From Gemmatimonadota bacterium (GTDB lineage: Bacteria > Gemmatimonadota > Gemmatimonadetes > Gemmatimonadales > GWC2-71-9), in the NCBI GenBank assembly GCA_039586365.1, contig JBDHKN010000107.1:1-15446 (forward strand): a DNA stretch of 15,446 bases. The letters run 5' to 3'. The position numbers were made by a program, and so were the translations under genes. The notes beneath the pieces were generated by a model, which did not search any database, had not been told where the DNA came from, and saw only the letters and a program-made list of their open reading frames with translations. Below, in pieces: positions 1 to 13,200 of this stretch. Numbering within the stretch: the stretch's first letter is position 1; the number at the start of each line of letters is the position of its first letter.

Positions 1-150
1 GAACTGTGCGAGTGCCGCGACCACGAAAAGGAAGACGCGGCACCCGACGACGACGAAATCTCAGTCGAGCCTCAGCTGCAGAGTACCCTCGCTAGCCTGG
101 TGACGTTGGAGTCAGCCACCTGAGCACCCTCGCCAACGCTCAGCCCAGCG

Positions 151-312
151 TCAGGTCTGGGACCCTTGAATACCCGCTTGCAGGCAGGGACTAGTCTGAG
201 ATCCCTGCCATCCGCAGTCCTGGCGCGGCGCAGTGATGTCGGAGCAGGCTGCAGCGCCGAGGGCGAAACCGGCCAGCATGGCAAAGGCCAACAGGCGGTT
301 ACGAAGAGACAT
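151..312 (-). CDS. Small secreted lipopeptide / peptide precursor, 53 aa (not in ORF track)
   Basis: Manual translation: MSLRNRLLAFAMLAGFALGAAACSDITAPRQDCGWQGSQTSPCLQAGIQGSQT*. Strong SD GGAGGT (317-322) 4 nt before the ATG. Basic N-region, hydrophobic core and lipobox-like AAAC (Cys23). Repeated GxQGSQT motif. Confidence 0.75.
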   Translation of the reverse strand: MSLRNRLLAFAMLAGFALGAAACSDITAPRQDCGWQGSQTSPCLQAGIQGSQT

Positions 313-330
313 GGTTACCTCCGCGGTTGG

Positions 331-344
331 ATTGAGCGCTCAAT
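331..344. promoter_or_regulatory. Perfect 14-bp palindrome ATTGAGCGCTCAAT, candidate operator
   Basis: Exact inverted symmetry just upstream of the SD of the 151-312 gene. The TGAGCGCTCA core resembles LacI-family operators. Confidence 0.45.
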
Positions 345-399
345 AGTTGGGGAACCACAAAGAAGTTCGGTCAATGTGCCAGCCTCCGTTAGTGCGGTA

Positions 400-711
400 T
401 TGGGACTTCATACGTCGTTTTTGGGACATCTGTGTGGGTTTGGGGGGGTGCTACCCCTTTTTCGGACCATCTAGATTGGAACAGCTGTCTGCTGCGGTCC
501 GGGTTTACCTGTCCTGAGGCTAGTGGAATTGAGGTGACGAGGCGCTCGCCATTCTGGTCATGTCGCCAACTGTTAGCGCACTGCTCGGCCCCCTCGAGTT
601 CGAAGTAGCTGTCCCAAATCCACGCTGCTCAAGCGAAGCTGGGACACTTTGGCCCTGACTTGACGATGTTTGGCGTCTCTCCAGGTGCTCCGAAGCACAT
701 GAAGTGGGACA
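400..711. repeat. Five TGGGAC boxes in intergenic DNA
   Basis: TTGGGAC at 400-406 and 421-427 (21-bp period); TGTCCCAA at 610-617 (reverse); TGGGACA at 640-646 and 705-711. Confidence 0.45.
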
Positions 712-857
712 TTGGACAACAAGGCACAGCAGCTGCGGGTCGGGTGGAGAGCCGATCTTGCTGGCCCCGGCGGGAGGCGTCACAGCACCCAAACGCAGCA
801 CAGCGCTGCCGGGTCCCGATGGAGTGGCAGCGCCGATTTATTGCTGGCCAGGGCTGG

Positions 858-1295
858 TCAGTGAGCGATGAACGACTCGGCTAGTGGCCTCATTACGTAG
901 AGCATGATCTTATCACCGGCACGCGCGGACAGCGGATTGGTCTTCACGGCCTGCAGGTATCCCCGCGTTGCCGAGGCTGCTAGGCTGGGCCTCAGCGAGT
1001 AGATCCTGAGACGGAACTCGGTGCTTCCGTCCGCAAGCTGCTCGGGCAGTGTCAATGTTTGGTCGGAAGTGCGCTGCACTATGCCGAGCCGGAAGCCCCT
1101 ACCAGCCTCTGACACCGCATAAACCACTACGTCGAGCGAGTTGTGGTTGCACACCACGACGGTTGCCTCGCTGTCCGTGGGAGCGCCGGGGGTCTCGGTA
1201 AGACCGGTTGGTATTGCGGCACTGAGCGGCAGCACTCCCAGCACCGTCAGCAACGCGGCGGTGCCCAGTGAGAAGCGAATCCTGTTTGCCAACAT
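858..1295 (-). CDS. Secreted hypothetical beta-rich protein, 145 aa
   Basis: SD GGAGGTG upstream of the ATG. Signal peptide MLANRIRFSLGTAALLTVLGVLPLSAA. Beta-strand pattern VVVCNHNSLDVVVYAV...RLGIV...LTLP. Confidence 0.8.
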   Translation of the reverse strand: MLANRIRFSLGTAALLTVLGVLPLSAAIPTGLTETPGAPTDSEATVVVCNHNSLDVVVYAVSEAGRGFRLGIVQRTSDQTLTLPEQLADGSTEFRLRIYSLRPSLAASATRGYLQAVKTNPLSARAGDKIMLYVMRPLAESFIAH

Positions 1296-1495: not shown

Positions 1496-1608
1496 AGTCG
1501 TCGGTCTCGGGCTTGCCGCCGGGGGCTCCTGTCGGCATACTCTCGTCTTGCTTCTCGCTGCTGTGGGCCAGAAGGGAATACGGACTTCACTTCTCTAGGA
1601 GTCGCTCC

Positions 1609-3768
1609 ATGTCGCTTGCAGAGATCTGTTGCAGAACTCTTCGCCCGGCTCAAGTCGGCCTGGCGCTGGTTACGTTGTCGTTGCAGGTACCGCCACCGGC
1701 AACTGCTCAGAGTAGCCCGTTCCTGAGCGATCGCCTGTTCCAGATTCTGAACGGTGAGATCTCGGGCGACGCAGCCTTCGAGACAATCCGTGCGTTCACC
1801 CAATACCATCGTCCGACGAACAGCCCCGGTTTCACAGCGGCGGCCGAGTTCGTTTACGAGAAAGCGCTGGAGTTCGGACTCGAGGATGTGCTCAAGCTCA
1901 AGCAACCCTTGGATTACGCCGCGTGGAATGCGACCGAGGGGGAGATCTGGATCACCAGCCCGGTGCTCATGAAGCTGGCCGATCTCACCGACGTCCAGGT
2001 CATGCTGGCCGACAACAGCAGGTCGGTCGATGTGGAAACCGAACTGATTGATGTGGGTGACGGGACCAGCGCCTCGGACTATGCGGGTAAGGATGTGCGT
2101 GGGAAGGTGGTATTCGCCGCAGGCAATCCGGCAGCCGTGATCGAGCAAGCCGTGTTCAACCACGGAGCGCTGGGGATCGTGACTACCGCGCTGCGCTCCA
2201 CCAGCCAGCCCCTTGACCATCCTGACCAGATTCCTTGGCAGAGAGTGCAGACCGCGGCACCCCCGGGGGTGGCGACCCAGACCTGGTTCGCCTTCGTACT
2301 TTCGGCCCGGCGGGGCGGTGAACTGCAGGCGTTGCTCGCCGGCCGGTCTCTGCCGCAGGAAGTCGCGTTCACCGGGGCCGATCCGGCCGGTCCGGTCCGC
2401 GTCAAGGTGCTAATTGAATCAGCATTCGACGCCTCGGACATGGAAACCGAGTTCATTGAGGCCAGAATCAACGGTACCGACCCGTCGCTGCCTGGTCTGG
2501 TGTTCACCGGCCACATTCAGGAGGAGAAGTTCTCAGCCAACGACGACGCATCCGGATGCGCCAGCGTGCTGGAGATAGCTCGCGCTGTGAAGCACCTGAT
2601 TGCCACCGGCATGATCGAGCGTCCCAAACGTACGCTGCGGTTTTGGCTCTCCACTGAGATCCGGGGACCCTACTGGTACTTCCAGACCCACCCGGAAGCG
2701 CGGCAAGACTTCATCGTCAACCTGCATCAGGACATGGTGGGCGCTAAGCAGACAGAGGGGAGCAGGGTGCAGCATATCATCCGCAGCCCACATCACAACG
2801 CATCCTATCTGCCCGATGTGGTGCAGAGTCTTGCCGAGTTGGTGATCCACGGCAACTCCGGGTACCTCGCGGCCCTGCAGGTGGGTAGTCCCTATCCCTT
2901 CCCCAAGCCGATCTTCAGTCACCTGGGCACGCGTGACGGGTATCGAGCCGAGATAGTGCCGAACTTCAACAATTCGGACCACATGGTCTTCAACGACGCT
3001 ATCATTGGAATCCCGTCGGTGGGGTTCATCAACTGGCCGGATGACTACATCCACTCCAGTCTGGACGACCTCTGGCAGGTCGACCCCACCCAACTGAAGC
3101 GCAATGCTTTCATTATTGCAGCTGCCGCACTGTACTTGGCCAACGCCGGCACCGCGGAGGTGCCGACGCTCATCGCCGAAGTTGAGGGCCGCGGAGCCGA
3201 GCGTTTCGGTAAGGACCTGCGGGTCGCCATGGCCCGTTTGGCCAGCTCGGTGCCGGAGCAACGGGAAGAGGCCTACAAGGCAGGCACGTACATCATCGAG
3301 GCGGCCGCGTTGCGAGAGCAACGGGCGCTCGGGACGATCAGGGATTTCAGCGGGACGGACCGCCAGGCCGATCAGGCGATCGCGGACGCTGTCGGACGCG
3401 TTACAGACCTGGCGGGTGCTCAGCGGGCCGCGCTGGATGGCTACTATAGGAGCCTGACCGGTAGGAGCGCACCCAGAGTCACGCTGAGCGCAGCGGAGCG
3501 TGCAGCCTCGAGCAAGGTGCCGGCATCAATTGATGACGTTGAGCGCTACCTGAACGACCGGCCAAGGCCAGCCACCGGGCTGCACGGGCTCATGGCCTTT
3601 GCCGTCTGGGGTCATGTAGACGGCCAGACATCTTACCTGGATATCTACAAGCAGGTGATGGCTGAGGCGATGGTTCACGGTGACTGGTACTACGGGACCG
3701 TGACACTCGAGCAAGTGGCGCAAACGCTGGACGCTGGTGTCCAGGCGGGTGTACTGGAACTCCGATAG
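1609..3768 (+). CDS. Secreted M28-family-like metallopeptidase with PA domain (DUF4910-like), paralog 1
   Basis: Long ORF; likely start is ATG 1609 behind AGGAG rather than 1513. Signal peptide ending ATA-Q. PA motif DYAGKDVRGKVV. Motifs GHIQEE, SANDDASG, STEIRG, HQDMVG, NSDH, YIHSSLDD. Confidence 0.88.
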   Translation: MSLAEICCRTLRPAQVGLALVTLSLQVPPPATAQSSPFLSDRLFQILNGEISGDAAFETIRAFTQYHRPTNSPGFTAAAEFVYEKALEFGLEDVLKLKQPLDYAAWNATEGEIWITSPVLMKLADLTDVQVMLADNSRSVDVETELIDVGDGTSASDYAGKDVRGKVVFAAGNPAAVIEQAVFNHGALGIVTTALRSTSQPLDHPDQIPWQRVQTAAPPGVATQTWFAFVLSARRGGELQALLAGRSLPQEVAFTGADPAGPVRVKVLIESAFDASDMETEFIEARINGTDPSLPGLVFTGHIQEEKFSANDDASGCASVLEIARAVKHLIATGMIERPKRTLRFWLSTEIRGPYWYFQTHPEARQDFIVNLHQDMVGAKQTEGSRVQHIIRSPHHNASYLPDVVQSLAELVIHGNSGYLAALQVGSPYPFPKPIFSHLGTRDGYRAEIVPNFNNSDHMVFNDAIIGIPSVGFINWPDDYIHSSLDDLWQVDPTQLKRNAFIIAAAALYLANAGTAEVPTLIAEVEGRGAERFGKDLRVAMARLASSVPEQREEAYKAGTYIIEAAALREQRALGTIRDFSGTDRQADQAIADAVGRVTDLAGAQRAALDGYYRSLTGRSAPRVTLSAAERAASSKVPASIDDVERYLNDRPRPATGLHGLMAFAVWGHVDGQTSYLDIYKQVMAEAMVHGDWYYGTVTLEQVAQTLDAGVQAGVLELR

Positions 3769-3783: not shown

Positions 3784-6237
3784 TTGGAGTTCCCGTTGCC
3801 GGGAGGGCGTTACGGCCGCAGAGGCGCGTTACACAATTGGGTGGAAGTGCGCCTTGGGACCAACTCGGCCTTGAAGCGGGCGCGGTCGCCGATTGGCTTT
3901 GTGGTGTTGACGCTCGTCGCGCTGCAGACGCTGGCGACCAGCCTGGTTGCTCAGAGCGAGCCCCTGGTGAGCCATGCTGTCAGCATCCCACGGGTAGACG
4001 CCCAAGTCGAGATCGACGGCTTGCTCGACGAACCCGTATGGCAGAGTGCAGCGGTGTTGCGCGGCTTCACCCAATACTTGCCAGTCGACGGCCGTCCGGC
4101 CCACGATTCGACCGAGGTGCTAGCCTGGTATGCGCCGACCGCCCTCCACTTCGGCGTTCGCTGCTATGACTCCAACGCGTCTGTACGGGCCACACTTGCT
4201 GAACGCGACAAGATCGAGGGTGACGACTACGTCCAGATCTTGCTGGATACGTTCAACGACCGCCGGCAAGCCTTTGTCATCGGAGTCAACCCGTTGGGTG
4301 TCCAGTCCGATGGAATCCTGCGCGACGCGGACCGCCGCGCGGGCAGTGGCTTCTCTGCCGGGGGATCCGGCGCATACACCATCGACTTGAGTCCCGACTT
4401 CGTCTACCAATCGAAGGGTAGGCTCACCGGCTCCGGCTACGAGATCGAGATCCGCATCCCGTTCAAGAGTCTGCCATATCAGGCCGATCCCGAGCAGGAC
4501 TGGGGTCTCAACGTAATCCGCAAGGTGCAACACTCGGGCTTCGAGGATACCTGGAGCCCGGTGCTCCAAGCGAACGCCTCGTTCCTGTCACAGAGCGGCG
4601 CTCTGACTGGCCTCGCCGAGCTGCGCCGTGGACTCGTACTGGATCTCAATCCCGAGACCACCGCCCGCGTGACGGGTGAGGAGGCCACTTCGGGCTGGGC
4701 GTACAGCGGTCCCGACCCCGAATTGGGCGGTAACCTCCGCTGGGGAGTGACCAACAATCTGACTCTGAGTGGCACGATGAACCCCGATTTCTCGCAGATC
4801 GAGGCCGACGTGGCCAGAGTCCAGTTCGACCCGCGGAGCGCCGTGTTCTTCCCAGAAAAGCGACCCTTCTTCCTCGAGGGAATCGAGCACTTCGAACTGC
4901 CCGAGCGGCTCATCTACACCAGGCGCATTGCCGCACCGATCGCGGCGGTGAAGCTTACGGGCAAGGTCTCGGGCACCAACGTAGCGCTACTGTCGGGTGT
5001 GGACGATCAAACGAGTTCCGCCACGGGTAGCGACAACCCCGTGCACAACTGGCTGCGCGTGCGCCGTGATCTGGGGGGCCAATCCCACTTGGGAATCGCC
5101 TACACCGACAAGGTAGACGGAGCTGATTACAACCGCGTACCCTCGGTCGACGGGCGCTGGGTGTTCGGTGGCCTGTATTCGGTGACGTTCCAGGGTGCCA
5201 CGAGCTTCACCCGGTCAGGTGGTACGGTGACCAACGCACCGCTATGGAACCTCGCGTTCAGCCGCTCGGGGCGCACGTTCGGATTCACTTCGTCGTTCCG
5301 CGGCGTGCATCCGGAGTTCAGTGCACAAGGTGGTTTCATCAACCGCAGCGACGTCGTGAACGCAAGCTTCGTCCCTCGTGTCACGTTGTTCGGCCGTGCT
5401 GGGGCCTTGCTCGAGAGCTGGACCGGGAGTGTCAGCATGAGCGGTGCGTGGGATTACGACCGGTTCATGGCCGGCAACATCCCGGACGATCCCAAACTGC
5501 ATCTCAACGGCGCCTTCGGCCTGCGGGGTGGCTGGCAGGTGGGCACGACGCTGGTCATCGAGTCGTTCAAGTACCCGCCACAGCTCTATAGCGATTACGT
5601 AATCGAGCGGACCACTTCCGCCGGCGTCGACACCATCCCGTACACGGGCACTGACCGCCTCTACAACCTGGACTTTCTTGGCAGCCTCACAACCCCGCGG
5701 TTCCAGAATCTCTCCGGCAACTTCCGCGTCATCTACGGCCGCGATGAGAACTTCTACGAATGGGCTCCGGCCAACGTTTTCTTTCTGACAGTGGACATCA
5801 ACTGGCGTCCCACCGAGCAACTGCGGGTGAACGCGCTATACAACCATCAGCAGTATATCCGTCCCAGCGACTGGAGCACGGTGGGAATGCGGCGCATTCC
5901 GCGGCTCAAGCTGGAGTATCAGCTCTCCCGGTCGATCTTCGTGAGGTTCGTCGGACAGTACGATGCCGAGGTCCAGGACTCCTTGCGGGACGACTCCCGC
6001 ACCAACGATCCGATTCTGATCTACGATTCCGAGACTGACACCTATGCGCGCGCGGGTCGCGAAGTGCGGAACGACCTGAGGGTCGATTGGCTGTTTTCCT
6101 ACCGTCCCACACCGGGGACCGTGTTCTTTCTGGGCTATGGCAGCAGTCTGGAGGAGCCGGCCGCTTTCAGATTCCGCAGGATTGGGCGTGTGAACGACGG
6201 GTTCTTTCTGAAGTTGAGCTATCTGTTCCGCGTTTGA
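3784..6237 (+). CDS. CBM9-like/DOMON N-terminal domain plus DUF5916 outer-membrane beta-barrel protein
   Basis: Motifs IDGLLDEPVW, LDTFNDRRQAF, NPLGVQSDG, EIRIPFKSL, NPDFSQIEAD, FFPEKRPFFLEG. C-terminal beta-signal-like FFLKLSYLFRV. True start is probably later (3841-3871). Confidence 0.85.
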   Translation: MEFPLPGGRYGRRGALHNWVEVRLGTNSALKRARSPIGFVVLTLVALQTLATSLVAQSEPLVSHAVSIPRVDAQVEIDGLLDEPVWQSAAVLRGFTQYLPVDGRPAHDSTEVLAWYAPTALHFGVRCYDSNASVRATLAERDKIEGDDYVQILLDTFNDRRQAFVIGVNPLGVQSDGILRDADRRAGSGFSAGGSGAYTIDLSPDFVYQSKGRLTGSGYEIEIRIPFKSLPYQADPEQDWGLNVIRKVQHSGFEDTWSPVLQANASFLSQSGALTGLAELRRGLVLDLNPETTARVTGEEATSGWAYSGPDPELGGNLRWGVTNNLTLSGTMNPDFSQIEADVARVQFDPRSAVFFPEKRPFFLEGIEHFELPERLIYTRRIAAPIAAVKLTGKVSGTNVALLSGVDDQTSSATGSDNPVHNWLRVRRDLGGQSHLGIAYTDKVDGADYNRVPSVDGRWVFGGLYSVTFQGATSFTRSGGTVTNAPLWNLAFSRSGRTFGFTSSFRGVHPEFSAQGGFINRSDVVNASFVPRVTLFGRAGALLESWTGSVSMSGAWDYDRFMAGNIPDDPKLHLNGAFGLRGGWQVGTTLVIESFKYPPQLYSDYVIERTTSAGVDTIPYTGTDRLYNLDFLGSLTTPRFQNLSGNFRVIYGRDENFYEWAPANVFFLTVDINWRPTEQLRVNALYNHQQYIRPSDWSTVGMRRIPRLKLEYQLSRSIFVRFVGQYDAEVQDSLRDDSRTNDPILIYDSETDTYARAGREVRNDLRVDWLFSYRPTPGTVFFLGYGSSLEEPAAFRFRRIGRVNDGFFLKLSYLFRV

Positions 6238-6677: not shown

Positions 6678-8774
6678 CTACTGCAGACTGATCAAGTTGA
6701 GCTCTGCGGCGCTTTCCAGATACTGCAATACCGCTTCGGGGGCTACCAGCCCGTAGTAGTGCTCACCCGCCTCGCGTGCTTCGGCGGCCACATACTCGTA
6801 GATATCCAGGCCGGTCCGCTGGCCGTCGACGCAGTTGAGCACTTCGGAAGCCATCAAGTTGTGAAGCCCTGGGACTCCCCCGAGTCCAAAAAAGCCCGCC
6901 AGGAACTCCCTGGGCCCGCCGGTCACGGTCGGGCGAAGCTCGGCGAGGCGTCGCAGTGTCTCGGATCGCTGGATGGGTGGCGCGCGACGGCGATCAGTCA
7001 GGAGCCGGTAGTACTGCTCCAACTCACTCACAGCCTGCGTCTCACGTCGGTCCACTGCTTCGAGCAGCGAGGGTACCATTGCCGCACCGGTCGGGCCGAG
7101 TTCCTGCAACGAGGTCACGGCGAGGCGCTCGCGTGCGGCCGCGTAGCGGACCTGCTGGACGCCCCGGTGGTAGGCACCGGCTTTGTCAGCGTCCGTGCCG
7201 AGCCACGATAGGGCGAGGGCGAGGTTGTTTCCGATCCGCTGCGCGCCGCGGCCGACCGTCTCCGCCACCAAGGCCGGAGTGGTGGTCTCGTCGGCCGTCG
7301 CCATGATCCACGCCATGAGAGCAGTCGAGACAATGTTCCTGCCCAACTGCGTCCGATCGACGTTCCACAGGTCATCGTCCGAGCTGTGGATGTAGCGATC
7401 GGGCCAATTGGTAAACGTCACGCCCGGCACTCCGATGGGCGCTCCGTTGAATACGATATGGTCCGTGCTGCCGTGGAAGAAGATCATGCTGGCGTTGTAG
7501 CGGTGGCGCGTGCCGAGATGCGACAGGTGCGGCTTCGTATACAGGTCGGTGCCGAGAGTGACTCCGGGTCTCGTCTGCGCGAGCTGCGAGGTATTCGCGG
7601 CGACCATGTACTCGACGACCGCTTCCACCACGTCGTTGAAGAAGTGAAATCGGGACGCAGGAAGACGCGTCACGTTCTGCACTCGCATCACGTCCTGCGC
7701 CTGGTTTGCACCCACCATGTCGTTGTTGACGTTGACCCACATCTGATGGTGTGCCTCAGGATGATCGACAAAGTACTGGAACTCGCTCGAACCTTCCGTA
7801 GCCCACCAGAAGCGGATGTTGCGACGGGGCCTTGGGAGGTTCCCTTCGTCGATCAGCTTCTTGAACGCTCGTCCGATCTCGAGGAGGCTCGCCGTGCCGC
7901 TCGCATCGTCGTTGGCGGAGAACTTCTCTTCCTGGAGATGACCCGTGAGCACGATGTCCTGTCCCAGCTCTGGCTCGCTCCCACGGATGTAGGCCTCGAC
8001 CATCACCTGCCACGGTTCAGCTCCCGCCACGGATGTGAACTCGGCATCCACCGCCGCCCGCACTCTGACCGGCGTCTCGGCCCTGGCCAGGCGTGCCTTG
8101 AGCGCCAGGCCCTGCCGCAGCGACAACACGAAGGCGAAGGTACTCAACTGACCGTCCGGACCTTCGGGCGAGACCTGGGACCAGCGCAGCTGGTCAGGAC
8201 GGGAAATGGCCACGTCGCTCGACGTGCTCGGATACCAGACTAGACCTGCCGCACCTCGGTTCCAGACTGCCTCACTCATGACAACGGACATGGGTCCGTT
8301 GGCCAGCACGATCTTGCCGGACACGTCTTTGCCCGCGTAGTCCGCTTCCACGGTGCCGGTCCCCACGTCGATGATTTCTGTGGTCACGTCAGCCGCCCTG
8401 CTGTAGTCGGCCAAGTGCAGTGGGGTCTGTAGGGTACTGGCGATGCGTTCCCGCACCGGGTCTACGATCCACAGATCTGCAAACCGCCCGTTCCACGCTG
8501 GCGCCGGCCAGGGTATCGCTTGCTTGATCAACTGTACGTCCTCGAGCCCAAGCTCATTCGCTTTCCTCTCGTGGTACTGAGCCGCCTCCCACATGTCGTC
8601 CGAGCCTACAGCTCTGTGTAGTTGCGTCATGAAGCGGATGTGTTCGTAGGCGGCATCGCCCGAGATCTCTTGCGTGATGAGTTGGAGGTGTTCGGGTTTG
8701 ACAATCGGGAGCGTCTGCGCGTGGAGTGCCTGTACGCCAGCGAGCATGAGGAGAACTGTCAATGTGCGCGTCAT
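6678..8774 (-). CDS. Secreted M28-family-like metallopeptidase with PA domain, paralog 2
   Basis: Start set at ATG 8774 (MTRTLTVLL...) by match with paralog 3. Signal peptide. Motifs GHLQEEKFSANDDASG, WWATEGSS, NNDMVG, STDH, YIHSSDDD. Confidence 0.9.
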   Translation of the reverse strand: MTRTLTVLLMLAGVQALHAQTLPIVKPEHLQLITQEISGDAAYEHIRFMTQLHRAVGSDDMWEAAQYHERKANELGLEDVQLIKQAIPWPAPAWNGRFADLWIVDPVRERIASTLQTPLHLADYSRAADVTTEIIDVGTGTVEADYAGKDVSGKIVLANGPMSVVMSEAVWNRGAAGLVWYPSTSSDVAISRPDQLRWSQVSPEGPDGQLSTFAFVLSLRQGLALKARLARAETPVRVRAAVDAEFTSVAGAEPWQVMVEAYIRGSEPELGQDIVLTGHLQEEKFSANDDASGTASLLEIGRAFKKLIDEGNLPRPRRNIRFWWATEGSSEFQYFVDHPEAHHQMWVNVNNDMVGANQAQDVMRVQNVTRLPASRFHFFNDVVEAVVEYMVAANTSQLAQTRPGVTLGTDLYTKPHLSHLGTRHRYNASMIFFHGSTDHIVFNGAPIGVPGVTFTNWPDRYIHSSDDDLWNVDRTQLGRNIVSTALMAWIMATADETTTPALVAETVGRGAQRIGNNLALALSWLGTDADKAGAYHRGVQQVRYAAARERLAVTSLQELGPTGAAMVPSLLEAVDRRETQAVSELEQYYRLLTDRRRAPPIQRSETLRRLAELRPTVTGGPREFLAGFFGLGGVPGLHNLMASEVLNCVDGQRTGLDIYEYVAAEAREAGEHYYGLVAPEAVLQYLESAAELNLISLQ

Positions 8775-8840
8775 CTTTTGCACCGTGCCTTTCAGTAGCG
8801 AATTCCCCACAACCGTCTACTCTCTCTCGGCAATCTCTTC

Positions 8841-10940
8841 CTACCGCAAACCGATCAAGTCGAACTCAGCGAGTGCCTCCAGGTAGCGCTCCACGGCTTC
8901 CGGGGTCACCGTCCCATAGTAGTGCTCTCCCGCTTCACGGGCTTCCGCGGCCACGTACTCGTAGATCTCCAGACCGGTGCGCTCCCCGTCGATGCAGTTG
9001 AGTACCTCAAATGCCATCAAGTCGTGTAGTCCTGGGACGCCGGGGATCTGTTGCCTCACCGGCAGGAACTCCGTGGGGTCAGCAGTCACCGTCGGGTGCA
9101 GGTCAGCGAGGCGTCGCTGGGCGTCGGATCGCTCAACTTGAGGTGCCGGACGCTGGCCGGTGAGAAGACGGTAATACTGCTCCACCTCGCTCACCGCCTG
9201 CGTCTCCCGCTGGTTCACCGCCTCGAGCAACTGGGGAACCATCGCAGCACCCTCGGAGCCGAGTTCCTGCAACGACGTCACGGCCAAGCGCTCGCGTGCT
9301 GCTGCGTAGCGGACCTGCTTCACACCGCGGTGGTAGGCACCGGTCTTTTCGGTCTCCGTGCCGAGCCATGACAGAGCGAGGGCGAGGTTGTTTCCGATCC
9401 GCTGCGCGCCGCGACCGAGCGTCTCTGCCGCTAGGGCCGGAGTGGTGCTCTCGTCGGCGGTTGCCATGATCCACGCCATGAGCGCGGTCGAGACGATGTT
9501 CCTGCCGAACTGGGTGCGATCGACGTTCCACAGGTCATCGTCCGAGCTGTGGATGTAGCGGTCGGGCCAATTGGTGAAGGTTACGCCCGGTACTCCGATC
9601 GGTGCCTCGTTGAAAGTCATGTGGTCCGTGCTGTTGTGGAAGAAGATCATGCTGGCGTTGTAGCGGTGACGCGTACCTAGATGCGAGAGGTGCGGTTTGG
9701 TGTATAGATCGGTGCCGAGGACTACTCCGGCTCGCGTCTGTGCTAGCTGCGACGTATTCGCCGCGACCATGTACTCTATCACCGCTTCCGCCACGTCGTT
9801 GAAGAAGTGGAACCGAGATGCCGGCAGGCGCGTGATGTTCTGAACCCGCATTACGTCCTGTGCCTGGTTCGCGCCCACCATGTCGTTGTTGACGTTCACC
9901 CACATCTGATGGTGCGCCTCAGGATGATCGGCAAAGTACTGGCGCTGTGAGGAGATCTCGGTGACCCACCAGAAGCGGATGTTGCGCCGCGGACGCGGCA
10001 AGCTTCCCTCGTCGATCAGCTTCGTCAACGCGCGCCCAATCTCGAGCAAGCTCGCGGTGCCGCTCGCATCATCATTGGCTGAAGTCTTTTCCTCTTGGAG
10101 GTGTCCAGTTAGCACGACGTCCTGTCCCAGCTCCGGCTCTGTGCCCCGGATGTAAGCCTCCACCATCACTTGCCAGGGCTCGTCTCCTGCCTCGGAGGTG
10201 AACTCGGCGTCCACCACTGCTCGCACTCTGACGGGCGCTTGGGATCGGGCCAACCTTTGTTTGAGAGCGAGGCCCTGCCGTAACGACAAGCTGAAGGCGA
10301 AGGTGCTCAGCTGGCCGTCCGGCCCTTCGGGCGAGACCCGCGTCCAGCGCAACTGGTCCGGACGGGAGAGCGCGACGTCACTCATAGTGCTCGGGTACCA
10401 AACGACACCGGCTGCACCTTTGTTCCACACCGCTTCGCGCATCACCGCCTCCAGCGATCCGTTGGCGAGCACGATCTTACCTGAGACGTCTTTGCCTACG
10501 TAGTCCGCTGCATCGCTGCCTGTCCCTGCGTCGATGAGTTCGGTGGTCACGTCGGTTGCTCGGCTGTAATCGGCCAGGTGCAGTGGGGTCTGGAGCGTGC
10601 TGGCGATGCGTTCTCTCACCGGTTCTACGATCCACAGATCCGCGAAACGGGCGTTCCACGGGCGGCTTCCTCGAGAGTAGGCTTGCTTGATGAGTTGAAC
10701 GTCCTCGAGTTCGAACTCCATCGCTTTCTGCTCATGGTATGCAGCTGCATTCCAGAGACCGTCTCCCCCGCCCGTCGTCCGATGCAGATGTGTCATCACG
10801 CGGATGTGTTCGTAGGCGGCATCGCCCGAGATCTCTTGCGTGATGAGTTGGAGGTGCTCGGGTTTGATAATCGGGAGTGTCTGCGCGCCGAGCGCCTGCA
10901 CGCCGGCGAGCATGAGGAGAACTGTCAATGTGCGCGTCAT
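8841..10940 (-). CDS. Secreted M28-family-like metallopeptidase with PA domain, paralog 3
   Basis: 699 aa, collinear with and highly similar to paralog 2. Motifs GHLQEEKTSANDDASG, WWVTEISS, NNDMVG, YIHSSDDD. Confidence 0.9.
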   Translation of the reverse strand: MTRTLTVLLMLAGVQALGAQTLPIIKPEHLQLITQEISGDAAYEHIRVMTHLHRTTGGGDGLWNAAAYHEQKAMEFELEDVQLIKQAYSRGSRPWNARFADLWIVEPVRERIASTLQTPLHLADYSRATDVTTELIDAGTGSDAADYVGKDVSGKIVLANGSLEAVMREAVWNKGAAGVVWYPSTMSDVALSRPDQLRWTRVSPEGPDGQLSTFAFSLSLRQGLALKQRLARSQAPVRVRAVVDAEFTSEAGDEPWQVMVEAYIRGTEPELGQDVVLTGHLQEEKTSANDDASGTASLLEIGRALTKLIDEGSLPRPRRNIRFWWVTEISSQRQYFADHPEAHHQMWVNVNNDMVGANQAQDVMRVQNITRLPASRFHFFNDVAEAVIEYMVAANTSQLAQTRAGVVLGTDLYTKPHLSHLGTRHRYNASMIFFHNSTDHMTFNEAPIGVPGVTFTNWPDRYIHSSDDDLWNVDRTQFGRNIVSTALMAWIMATADESTTPALAAETLGRGAQRIGNNLALALSWLGTETEKTGAYHRGVKQVRYAAARERLAVTSLQELGSEGAAMVPQLLEAVNQRETQAVSEVEQYYRLLTGQRPAPQVERSDAQRRLADLHPTVTADPTEFLPVRQQIPGVPGLHDLMAFEVLNCIDGERTGLEIYEYVAAEAREAGEHYYGTVTPEAVERYLEALAEFDLIGLR

Positions 10941-11043: not shown

Positions 11044-12756
11044 TCAGTATCTCCAGCTCCGGACGTCCGCTCCCGGAGGTGCCGTCCGTGTAAGATGCCT
11101 GGCCATCTGCGGCAGGACGAACTCCACGCTGCTCTGCCCGGGCGGGGCGCCGGTGTAGCAGTGCGGTTGCCGCTCACCCCATTCCACGCTGCCGGCGTAG
11201 TACGGATCTCGTGTGCCCTCGAGGAATTGCTCCATCAGGCGCATGGCTTCCTCCAGCACGAAGGTGTCCATGTCGCCCATGTAGATGTGGATCTTGCCGC
11301 GGAGCTTGGGGCCGAGTGTCGCCCAGTCGCGCTCCAGGATGTGGCGCAGGTCGTAGTTCTCCCGCCAGTAATCGATCACGCCCTTGTCGATTGCGCCCGT
11401 GCGTTTGTCGTAGAGCAGACGTGTGTAGCCGTCCTCCGCCACGGGACCGTACACGGCCTGAAAGATGTCCAGCTGTCCGCCGGAACGTCCCCTGGTGCCT
11501 AGCACCAATTCGACAGTGCTGGCGTCCTTGTAAGTCATCAGCACCTGGTCGTCCACGCCTCGCATCACGGGTCTGATGGGGTCGTGTTTCCACTCGCTGT
11601 TAGGGTAGTAGGCGTTGTCGTCCTCGTAGATGTTGACTAGCTGGAAGTAGCGGAAGTCTACGGGATCGGGACAGAACGACCAGGTGCCGTTGAACAGGTC
11701 CGGGTAGAAGATCTGCACCGCTAACGCCCGCCAGCCGCCGGTGGAGCCGCCGAACAGCGTGCGGGCCCAGCCCTCGCCGATGCCCCGGAACTGTTGCTCG
11801 ACGTAGGGGATCAGCTCCTGGGTGATCGCGTCCCCATACGGGCCCACGTTGGCGGAGTTCACGGCGTAGGAGTCATCGTAGTAGGGAGTTGGGTCCTGGG
11901 GCATGACGATGAGCATCTTGGGAAGCTGGCCCGACGTCCACTTGCGATAGAAGTCGTATGCGCTCGCCTGGCTGGCGCTGGCCCGGCCCGTTGCAGCGGG
12001 ATCGGGGGGCTGTTCGCGGAACCAACCGAACGTCGGAGCGAAGTGCCCCTGCGAATAGGCCACGGGGTAACGTGCGTCGGGATACGACTCGAAGCCCGGG
12101 GGCAACAGCACGACTGCGCCGATGTACATGTCGGTGCCCCAGAACTCGCTCACCAGTTCGCTCTTGATCTTCACATGCTTGACGTAGCGAGTGTCCTCGG
12201 GCGGTTCGATAGGCGGGATCTTGTTGGTCAGCTCGATGCGAACCGTGCCGCCACCCTCAGGATCGATGGTGATCTGTTGCACGTCGCTGTAGAGATTGCC
12301 GGGCGAGATGTTCCAGTGCTGCCCCTCCCACTGATCCATGTGCAACTTGACGACGTGTCCGTCGGCCCGGTGAAACGTGGTGTACACGTTCAGCACCGCC
12401 TGGACATTGTACTCGCGGGCGGGGAGGTCTGCGATGCTACTCACCGGATAGCCGAGCACCGCGTCGTCGATGACCGCGCGTTGGCCGGGTGCGAGTCCCT
12501 CCACCTCTATACCGAAGAACGGTTGTGTCTGCGGTCCCCAACTGGCGGCGTGAAACCGCGGCTCTTGGTCGTCCCGAGTTGACAGGAGTAGCAGTGCTCG
12601 GCCATCGAGCGGTTGCGTTTCGATCGAGGCGGGGAAGGAGATCTCGAACTTGAGGTCGCTGCGTCCGGCGCCCGCGCCTTGGCAGGCAATCGTCCCCAGG
12701 GCTAGCAATGCAAACAGTGCCGCGTGCGTGGCCGTGATCGACTGATTCGCAAGCAT
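11044..12756 (-). CDS. Lipoprotein alpha/beta-hydrolase (putative esterase, enterochelin-esterase-like fold)
   Basis: Nucleophile elbow FGGSTGGW, candidate Asp (GDMDTF) and His (QPHC), DDSYAVNSANVGPYGD motif. Lipobox-like GTIAC after a hydrophobic stretch. Start is ATG 12756, or 12810 (which has AGGAG). Confidence 0.85.
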   Translation of the reverse strand: MLANQSITATHAALFALLALGTIACQGAGAGRSDLKFEISFPASIETQPLDGRALLLLSTRDDQEPRFHAASWGPQTQPFFGIEVEGLAPGQRAVIDDAVLGYPVSSIADLPAREYNVQAVLNVYTTFHRADGHVVKLHMDQWEGQHWNISPGNLYSDVQQITIDPEGGGTVRIELTNKIPPIEPPEDTRYVKHVKIKSELVSEFWGTDMYIGAVVLLPPGFESYPDARYPVAYSQGHFAPTFGWFREQPPDPAATGRASASQASAYDFYRKWTSGQLPKMLIVMPQDPTPYYDDSYAVNSANVGPYGDAITQELIPYVEQQFRGIGEGWARTLFGGSTGGWRALAVQIFYPDLFNGTWSFCPDPVDFRYFQLVNIYEDDNAYYPNSEWKHDPIRPVMRGVDDQVLMTYKDASTVELVLGTRGRSGGQLDIFQAVYGPVAEDGYTRLLYDKRTGAIDKGVIDYWRENYDLRHILERDWATLGPKLRGKIHIYMGDMDTFVLEEAMRLMEQFLEGTRDPYYAGSVEWGERQPHCYTGAPPGQSSVEFVLPQMARHLTRTAPPGADVRSWRY

Positions 12757-13200
12757 ACTGCGTACCTTCTGACCATCATTTCTGGTGTGACTGAACGGCG
12801 GGACGTGCATGGTATCACTCCTGAGTTGTCGTCGGGTCGAGACACCTCCTCTCGGCCATGGACTTATCACGATTTCCTCGTCCCGGCAAGCACTACTTGA
12901 CGCGTGGTGGTCTCGCGGGACATACTATCCGGAGCGCTGTGGGCCCCCCTCCCTTTTTGCTTGGTCTGCAGCGTCGTGACCTGTAGGACAGGTAACAGCC
13001 CTAAAGAACTTCGTCTGCCACGGCGCCGCGTCTCTTGACTGGCGGTGAGCCGGGGGGAGTATTGCCGTTCCCGTGGTTGGCAGGCGGGTATGTAGTTTTT
13101 CGCTGGGACCGCCAGGGCAGTACTCTGGTTGCGGCCCCCTGTTCGACCCTCGCAGACCGGCTGCGGCCCTCCCGTTGCAGCGGTCGAAAGGAGGCAGGTC

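Follow-up and report, generated by a model that had tools for sequence, protein, structure and literature searches.

The 53-aa ORF near the start of a 15,446-nt stretch of Gemmatimonadota DNA (the window) is, judging from the substitutions among its orthologues, a real gene under purifying selection, and it encodes a predicted lipoprotein-type propeptide that carries two copies of a short core. In relatives, a gene for a TPR protein of ~425 aa converges on the peptide gene, and a gene for a 266-aa AraC-type regulator diverges from it. We infer a signaling role for the peptide, and the reading towards which we lean is a Rap-Phr-like circuit, in which the core, once released and imported, would bind to the TPR protein, and this protein would in turn control the AraC-type activator. 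The elements of the cassette that are present in the window are as follows.

1..123, plus strand: end of the convergent TPR gene, its final 40 codons (over 25 aa, 60% identical to the L011 TPR protein at its C-terminus)
151..312, minus strand: predicted lipoprotein-type propeptide gene, 53 aa, ATG start (from sequence, orthologues and dN/dS)
154..174, minus strand: core 2, GIQGSQT, at the free C-terminus (from sequence)
184..216, minus strand: Cys33-Cys43 loop enclosing core 1, predicted disulfide (from cysteine counts and spacing in the family)
193..213, minus strand: core 1, GWQGSQT (from sequence)
217..243, minus strand: tether S24-D32 with a T-A-P motif (from a family-wide motif count)
244..312, minus strand: predicted signal peptide (aa 1-22, ending AAA) and lipobox Cys23 (from pattern and hydropathy)
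317..322, minus strand: Shine-Dalgarno GGAGGT, 4 nt ahead of the peptide ATG (from sequence)
389..430, unstranded: tandem direct repeat with a 21-bp period, located 76 nt ahead of the peptide ATG and a candidate target of the AraC-type regulator

The original prediction had described the ORF with its GGAGGT, a signal peptide ending AAAC, a spacer and two GxQGSQT cores, and all of these were found as described, on the minus strand. Its suggestion that the synonymous differences between the cores reflect selection at the protein level was upheld by the comparison with relatives. The two DNA copies of QGSQT in the gene differ at four positions, every one a third codon position, and the five-residue copies show third-position differences only in all seven genes compared (the window gene and six same-genus orthologues). 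Pooled over the same seven genes, dN was 0.226 and dS 1.326, giving a dN/dS of ~0.17, and among 50 codons the variable positions comprised 45 third, 21 first and 17 second positions. The dN of the core was 0.119, compared to 0.21 in the signal and tether, in agreement with the claim that the precursor is exported and its C-terminal core is under selection; a core no better conserved than the spacer had been named in advance as an outcome that would speak against the idea. By this measure the core is the selected unit of the peptide.

A protein search returned eight sequences of 42-56 aa, counting the window peptide, with an identical build throughout, and peptide matches were obtained in 18 of the 61 genomes searched. 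The homologue search and table of neighbors proposed in the original prediction yielded true orthologues in six of the seven same-genus genomes, with TPR and AraC genes as neighbors; the match in the seventh genome was rejected as an orthologue, being an unrelated 163-aa lipoprotein. Exact 5-mer repeats occurred in 38 of 6258 small SD-preceded ORFs of the source genome, and the 53-aa ORF was the sole one of the 38 that also passed the short-lipoprotein filter. An overlapping 102-aa ORF on the plus strand (166-474) was rejected, since stops interrupt it in 7/7 relatives. The contig that begins with the window, C40, belongs to an 86%-complete assembly of 132 contigs, and the location of the gene 150 nt from the contig end could point to a chance ORF or an assembly artefact. 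We consider this explanation refuted, since a contig from an independent sequencing run matched window bases 1-336 without a difference, and since the conservation among orthologues and the dN/dS argue against it.

Pfam and NCBIfam searches gave no family for the window peptide. A scan of window positions 1-900 recovered no sigma-70-like promoter and no terminator near the peptide gene, and folding of the gap between the TPR and peptide genes was no better than that of shuffled sequences (z -0.57). A perfect 14-bp palindrome, which we take to resemble a LacI-type operator, is located at 331-344, 18 nt upstream of the peptide ATG; among 173 loci it is present only in the window and in a sister contig. 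The source genome harbors a signal peptidase II gene.

Across 111 family peptides the length ranges from 38 to 88 aa, every member has a lipobox, and a T/S-A/G-P-like tether motif is present in 109; a slightly stricter pattern of this motif matched 15 of the 153 long lipoproteins of the source genome. The tails beyond the tether are variable and rich in G, S, N, T and Q, with heterogeneous C-termini (H, N, C, T, K). The original prediction had raised the possibility of a Cys33-Cys43 disulfide ring, which the family makes more plausible. Two extra cysteines occur in 76 peptides, none in 35 and a single one in no peptide (n=111, one lipobox assignment having been corrected by hand), compared to ~37 of 106 peptides with one extra cysteine that independent occurrence would predict. 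The spacing between the paired cysteines is 6-11 in 70/72 peptides. That the extra cysteines are paired and never single supports a disulfide, and we predict that the pair forms one.

Exact core repeats are present in 11 of the 111 family peptides (one of them doubtful), with up to six copies; six, three and two exact repeats were observed at L027:2789-2986 (minus strand), L129:1829-1915 and L131:2236-2313 (minus strand), respectively, in three separate lineages. In the clade around the genus of the window, the QGS-x-T core is placed in the Cys loop, at the free end, or both. That the core is both looped and free-ended across this clade suggests that the linear form would be the one read. Within each of the six genus relatives the two copies are identical, and between these species the core varies at W/Y/I and Q/G. 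The identity of the copies within a species, together with the differences at synonymous sites, makes both copies look selected for one reader. In the lineage of the window (three sequences) the first copy has W and the second has I, and a sister cluster has I in both. Paralogous cassettes of one genome carried different tails in all 13 genomes compared.

Short repeated cores behind a leader-like N-terminus also fit a multicore RiPP precursor with enzymatically modified cores, as had been proposed for this ORF. We regard this explanation as very improbable, given that the leader is a lipoprotein signal, that no NCBIfam RiPP family scored above its cut-off, and that neither the 13-kb contexts of three relatives nor the upstream regions of 31 loci showed a recognizable tailoring enzyme; these cassette neighborhoods were covered by a scan (98 of the 125 frames upstream and 12 of the 80 in the contexts) and, for the remaining frames, by eye. 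The related expectation of a receptor or modifier to the left of the window was borne out for a receptor-type gene, the TPR gene that ends within window 1-123, but no tailoring enzyme was recognized beside the cassette in these neighborhoods. In the contexts and upstream frames examined, neither a releasing protease nor an importer was a fixed neighbor. A family-5 binding-protein gene is directly upstream of the TPR gene in four loci of one genus, and the source genome has four family-5 binding-protein matches, one with a stop.

The gene order is strongly maintained. A convergent lipobox peptide was found at 111 of 120 distinct TPR loci, and 106 of the 120 also have the divergent receiver-AraC gene. 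The sample comprised 128 TPR hits (110 from a phylum scan, part of its list, plus loci from other searches), from which seven duplicates and the unpublished L022 were removed; L009, with no TPR within its contig, and L016 had been set aside beforehand. Fifteen loci were first found through the peptide, and among the other 105, found through the TPR gene, 96 have a convergent peptide. As a control for the peptide finder, 55 of 600 gene ends matched, seven of them with the tether motif. The distance between the TPR and peptide genes is 28 nt in the window, compared to a median of 20 nt over 111 loci, and a lone receiver gene follows the AraC gene in 73 of 105 loci.

We recovered TPR-profile matches in 117 of 301 phylum genomes, including three unpublished ones (G100, G189 and G214); by group, these were 72/125 in the family of the source organism, 38/69 in a second family and 7/106 elsewhere. 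The source genome itself scores no match because its TPR gene is unassembled. In 300 phylum genomes, the TPR gene and the cassette-type AraC gene occurred together in 104, the TPR gene alone in 13, the AraC gene alone in seven and neither in 176; leaving out the unpublished genomes, both were present in 101 of 297. The AraC cut-off (1e-54) was placed at a score gap after the scores had been seen, and the co-occurrence counts are given without a significance test, kin genomes being non-independent. The seven AraC-only genomes comprised four with the gene at a contig edge, one with a peptide and a TPR fragment, one with a fragmented TPR gene and one with a divergent AraC gene without a cassette. 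A decaying cassette was observed at L173 (G237:C10:353700-357000), with the TPR gene in fragments and an internal stop in the AraC match. Neither 72,556 plasmids nor 50,697 phages contained a match to the TPR protein; a single-query GTDB scan yielded one locus and a metagenome scan at least one among the matches listed. At E <= 1e-30, 1,093 clusters (50% identity) matched the TPR protein, some of which are generic TPR proteins.

A pilin-like (N_methyl/GspH) gene is divergent from the TPR start at L035, L037, L044, L046, L048, L049, L053, L135, L164 and L166, and the pilin-like genes beside the TPR gene often follow a receiver-HD-GYP gene. An output of the cassette in pili or DNA uptake is possible.

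In the source genome the locus is split. Contigs C40 and C95 share their first 114 bases, which are the TPR end; the first codons of the TPR gene end contig C65, where two S9 peptidase genes lie ahead of the TPR start, and the middle of the gene is unassembled. The genes usually upstream of the TPR gene were not found in the source assembly. C40 retains the intact peptide gene and the box without an AraC gene. On C95 the peptide gene is decayed, with no start, two deletions and an in-frame stop, and the box is weak; after the box come AraC, lone receiver, MerR-like, LemA and M48 protease genes, in the same order as in G002, G004 and G006. The lone receiver on C95 (L002:1213-1611) has Asn at the position of the phospho-acceptor Asp of relatives (Glu in G002). 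The AraC-less layout recurs on a sister contig (L161, 86-89% identical), beside the same 145-aa and M28 genes. Both forms of the locus are present in two public runs, a third run spans window bases 1-336 exactly, and contigs of runs X1 and X4 part from the window sequence after base 483. These sequences are most simply read as a duplication followed by reciprocal loss, the alternative being two strains that co-occur. Compared to window 1-430, C95 (L002:1-1216) has a TPR end identical over 114 bases and a peptide region ~17% different, which hints at gene conversion.

The remainder of the window contains the following genes.

858-1295, minus strand: protein of 145 aa outside any Pfam family, its N-terminus signal-like (each of five genus genomes has 1-8 homologous matches)
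1513-3768, plus strand: M28 peptidase
3784-6237, plus strand: DUF5916 protein
6678-8810 and 8841-10940, minus strand: two M28 peptidases in tandem
11044-12870, minus strand: esterase
13129-end, plus strand: SusC-like TonB-dependent transporter

This peptidase and transporter stretch is an ordinary peptide-scavenging region. The original prediction had mentioned, as speculative, a link between the peptide and the nearby peptidases and TonB transporter, for which we found no support. In the single-contig relatives G004 and G006 the M28 homologues closest to the cassette are 0.4 and 1.1 Mb away, and the M28 peptidases were rejected as dedicated processing enzymes on account of this lack of linkage. 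Like these peptidases, the esterase and the transporter appear not to be fixed partners of the peptide.

The AraC-type protein combines a receiver fold with an AraC HTH. In 103 sequences, Asp48 of the receiver is present in 100 and Thr in 77; they lack the acidic pair, and the four commonest residues after strand 5 do not include Lys. By its residues, this receiver is outside the canonical phosphorylated response regulators, the canonical set being incomplete, and it is likely controlled by a protein partner. A second receiver-AraC paralogue, 30% identical, was observed in the source genome (G000 C125:25155-25859), and many genomes without the TPR gene have an AraC class that scores more weakly.

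Two-turn direct repeats are typical of AraC/XylS sites, and the 21-bp box, which in relatives ends one base before the AraC start codon, is likely where the AraC-type regulator binds. At 82 of 106 loci, compared to two after shuffling, a direct repeat with a lag of 21 precedes the peptide gene, and no other lag from 15 to 32 exceeded 14 loci. A box matrix scored in 94 of the 106 upstream regions, a circular figure since it was trained on the same regions, compared to none after shuffling, mostly 64-82 nt before the ATG. A matrix built from nine relatives gave eight hits above 18 bits at seven places in the source genome and none in two shuffles, and the box pattern had 25 matches in five relatives compared to four with a reversed control. 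Stand-alone receiver genes lie behind the box on C2 of the source genome, twice in G003, and in G004, G006 and G007; other recurrent genes behind it are one for a protein common to C73 and G002 and a pilin-like gene in G006 and G003, the source genome's copy of which gave no box hit. Window 431-490 resembles the sequence past two other box sites (G000 C18:105-210 and C2:1568-1624); with this likeness beyond three box sites, the element may have up to four half-sites.

The putative receptor is 421-441 aa long in relatives. All five TPR proteins tested scored above the Pfam TPR_12 cut-off, and searches of the protein gave no HTH family, no membrane helix and no signal segment. The predicted model of the G002 protein (106-row alignment, pLDDT 95.7) contains helices only, in our reading a head of three helices together with seven helix pairs, a cap and a tail helix. 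Its best fold match was LGN (Z 25.9, rmsd 4.0, 292 residues), over model residues 80-382 only. RapH aligned over 328 residues, 22-362 on 4-370 (Z 22.0, rmsd 6.3), and Rap of pLS20 also had a Z of 22.0; Rap proteins overall gave Z 20-22 at 10-13% identity. The PDB sequence-profile matches were LGN/Pins (best E 5e-18) and OGT, with no Rap protein among the best 60 of 96 hits. As modeled, the TPR protein appears built like Rap, a likeness in architecture that may or may not reflect common descent. The groove has conserved polar residues (R144 in 106/106, R251 in 97/106, D255 in 98/106).

Several results count against the proposed circuit. Groove columns showed no enrichment over other columns in covariation with the core (mean 0.011 vs 0.003, p = 0.28; groove positions were taken from a general TPR consensus and the pairs are non-independent), and core similarity tracks the AraC protein as well as the TPR protein (rho 0.39 each). 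The better fold match to LGN/Pins than to Rap, the heterogeneous C-termini of the peptides and the lack of a releasing protease or importer as a fixed neighbor also speak against it. Of 58 supported splits, 47 agreed between the receptor and regulator trees, a congruence that linkage by itself could produce. The lack of covariation fits a different arrangement, in which the AraC protein induces a small disulfide lipoprotein that feeds back on an envelope sensor kinase or an outer-membrane complex, with the TPR protein acting on the AraC protein independently; MgrB is a model for such a small envelope feedback protein. The box upstream of the peptide gene is as this arrangement would have it, and the stand-alone receivers, both in the cassette and behind boxes, point to two-component signaling. 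However, the source genome and the sister contig keep an intact peptide gene by the TPR end although the AraC gene is gone from that copy, the TPR groove is polar and conserved, and 35 of the 111 peptides lack the ring. We judge a feedback lipoprotein of this kind to be improbable.

In the Rap-Phr-like circuit that we favor, the precursor would be exported by Sec, lipidated at Cys23 and cleaved by signal peptidase II. A periplasmic disulfide would then turn core 1 into a ring while core 2 remains linear, and a protease would cut after or near the conserved T-A/G-P tether. An oligopeptide ABC transporter would bring in the core, the ring would be reduced, and the extended core would bind in the TPR groove. 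Without peptide, the TPR protein would keep the AraC protein inactive via its atypical receiver, as modeled on the control of ComA by Rap in Bacillus, and the peptide would release it. The AraC protein at the box would activate the peptide gene, a positive feedback, together with stand-alone receiver genes elsewhere, and would damp its own gene; in the source genome it would act in trans from contig C95. The lipobox would anchor the precursor, which counts against a free signal, and the path of an anchored periplasmic tail into the cytoplasm is the gap in the proposal.

The linkage of the genes fits cell-to-cell signaling and self-sensing alike. The same three proteins might interact as a private gauge of the envelope or export, in which the peptide never passes between cells and the TPR protein reads the unexported precursor or the cell's own recycled periplasmic tail fragments, reporting Sec/lipoprotein traffic, periplasmic proteolysis or the disulfide state. 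The universal lipobox and tether, which hold the product on the producing cell, favor such a gauge, as do the MerR-like, LemA and M48 protease genes after the AraC gene and lone receiver in the genus, and the lack of plasmid and phage matches, unlike Rap-Phr. A gauge has no need, however, for cores that diversify between species and paralogues or are repeated up to six times, and we consider this reading rather unlikely. Rather unlikely as well, and tentative, is a pheromone system in the style of Rap-Phr but of independent Gram-negative origin. In that system a lipid-anchored, ringed propeptide would act on a TPR anti-activator in the cytoplasm and an AraC master regulator that works without phosphorylation, a species-specific code would pass between cells by shedding, vesicles or contact, and the mixed W/I cores would be one gene with two dialects.

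RRNPP_detector sets five criteria for RRNPP systems, namely a propeptide of 10-100 aa, a Sec signal (SPI 'strict', SPII 'relaxed'), a receptor of 250-500 aa, TPRs and adjacency (PMC10075063). The cassette agrees with these in propeptide size, receptor size, TPRs and gene adjacency (four of the five), and in secretion its lipobox pattern and hydropathy fit Sec/SPII at the relaxed level only, as a pattern-based assignment. Of 2,734 classified RRNPPA propeptides, 211 use SPII (PMC9765709); that SPII is a minority there, while a lipobox is present in all members of our family, counts against the Rap-Phr-like circuit. Like the Rap-Phr systems (HTH-less RRNPP/RRNPPA, such as RapF-PhrF-ComA, RapH and Rap of pLS20), the cassette has a small exported propeptide beside a 250-500-aa TPR protein without an HTH, with a helical head and TPR body that align end to end in the predicted structure. 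Its likely target is a response-regulator-like transcription factor, in keeping with the Rap targets described in PMC11343458 and with the action of Rap receptors on a response regulator or repressor. Unlike Rap-Phr, it has a Gram-negative host, a lipobox in every member, convergent genes, a Cys ring in 76/111 peptides and an AraC pseudo-receiver encoded within, it is absent from the plasmids and phages searched, and its TPR protein, 10-13% identical to Rap, scores higher with LGN.

PMC11343458 also describes duplicated or pseudo-repeated pheromones in Rap3T-Phr3T and Rap105-Phr105 and states 1-4 copies. The likeness lies in several identical or slightly changed cores per precursor (W/I in the window, identical in relatives); the cassette differs in having one copy in the Cys loop and one at the free end, and up to six copies. 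Enterococcal pheromones of the cCF10/cAD1 type are cut from lipoprotein signal peptides and read by a cytoplasmic TPR-fold protein. They resemble the cassette in a lipoprotein precursor and a putative TPR-fold reader, but there the signal is the signal peptide of a large lipoprotein, whereas the repeated and best-conserved unit of the cassette is the C-terminal tail of a dedicated 53-aa gene. The TPR domain of LGN/Pins (GPSM2), the best fold and profile match, binds extended peptides; it is eukaryotic, and we take the match as generic TPR likeness with no functional link. By analogy, the cassette would work like Rap-Phr in the circuit proposed here, which has slightly more of our credence than of our doubt, and it stands as a candidate member of that family.

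For Bacillota, peptide signals with cytoplasmic TPR receptors as their readers have been described (PMC10075063, PMC11343458), and a search of the published literature, with subscription journals outside its coverage, recovered no paper on a peptide-TPR-AraC cassette of Gemmatimonadota. The TPR gene is carried by ~40% of the sampled Gemmatimonadota genomes (117/300). If the proposal is true, a circuit comparable to Rap-Phr would show that two membranes need not bar TPR-read peptide signals. This abundant, little-cultured phylum would also gain its first defined communication system, with ligand, receptor, regulator and DNA site named, and thereby directly testable in vitro and in E. coli.
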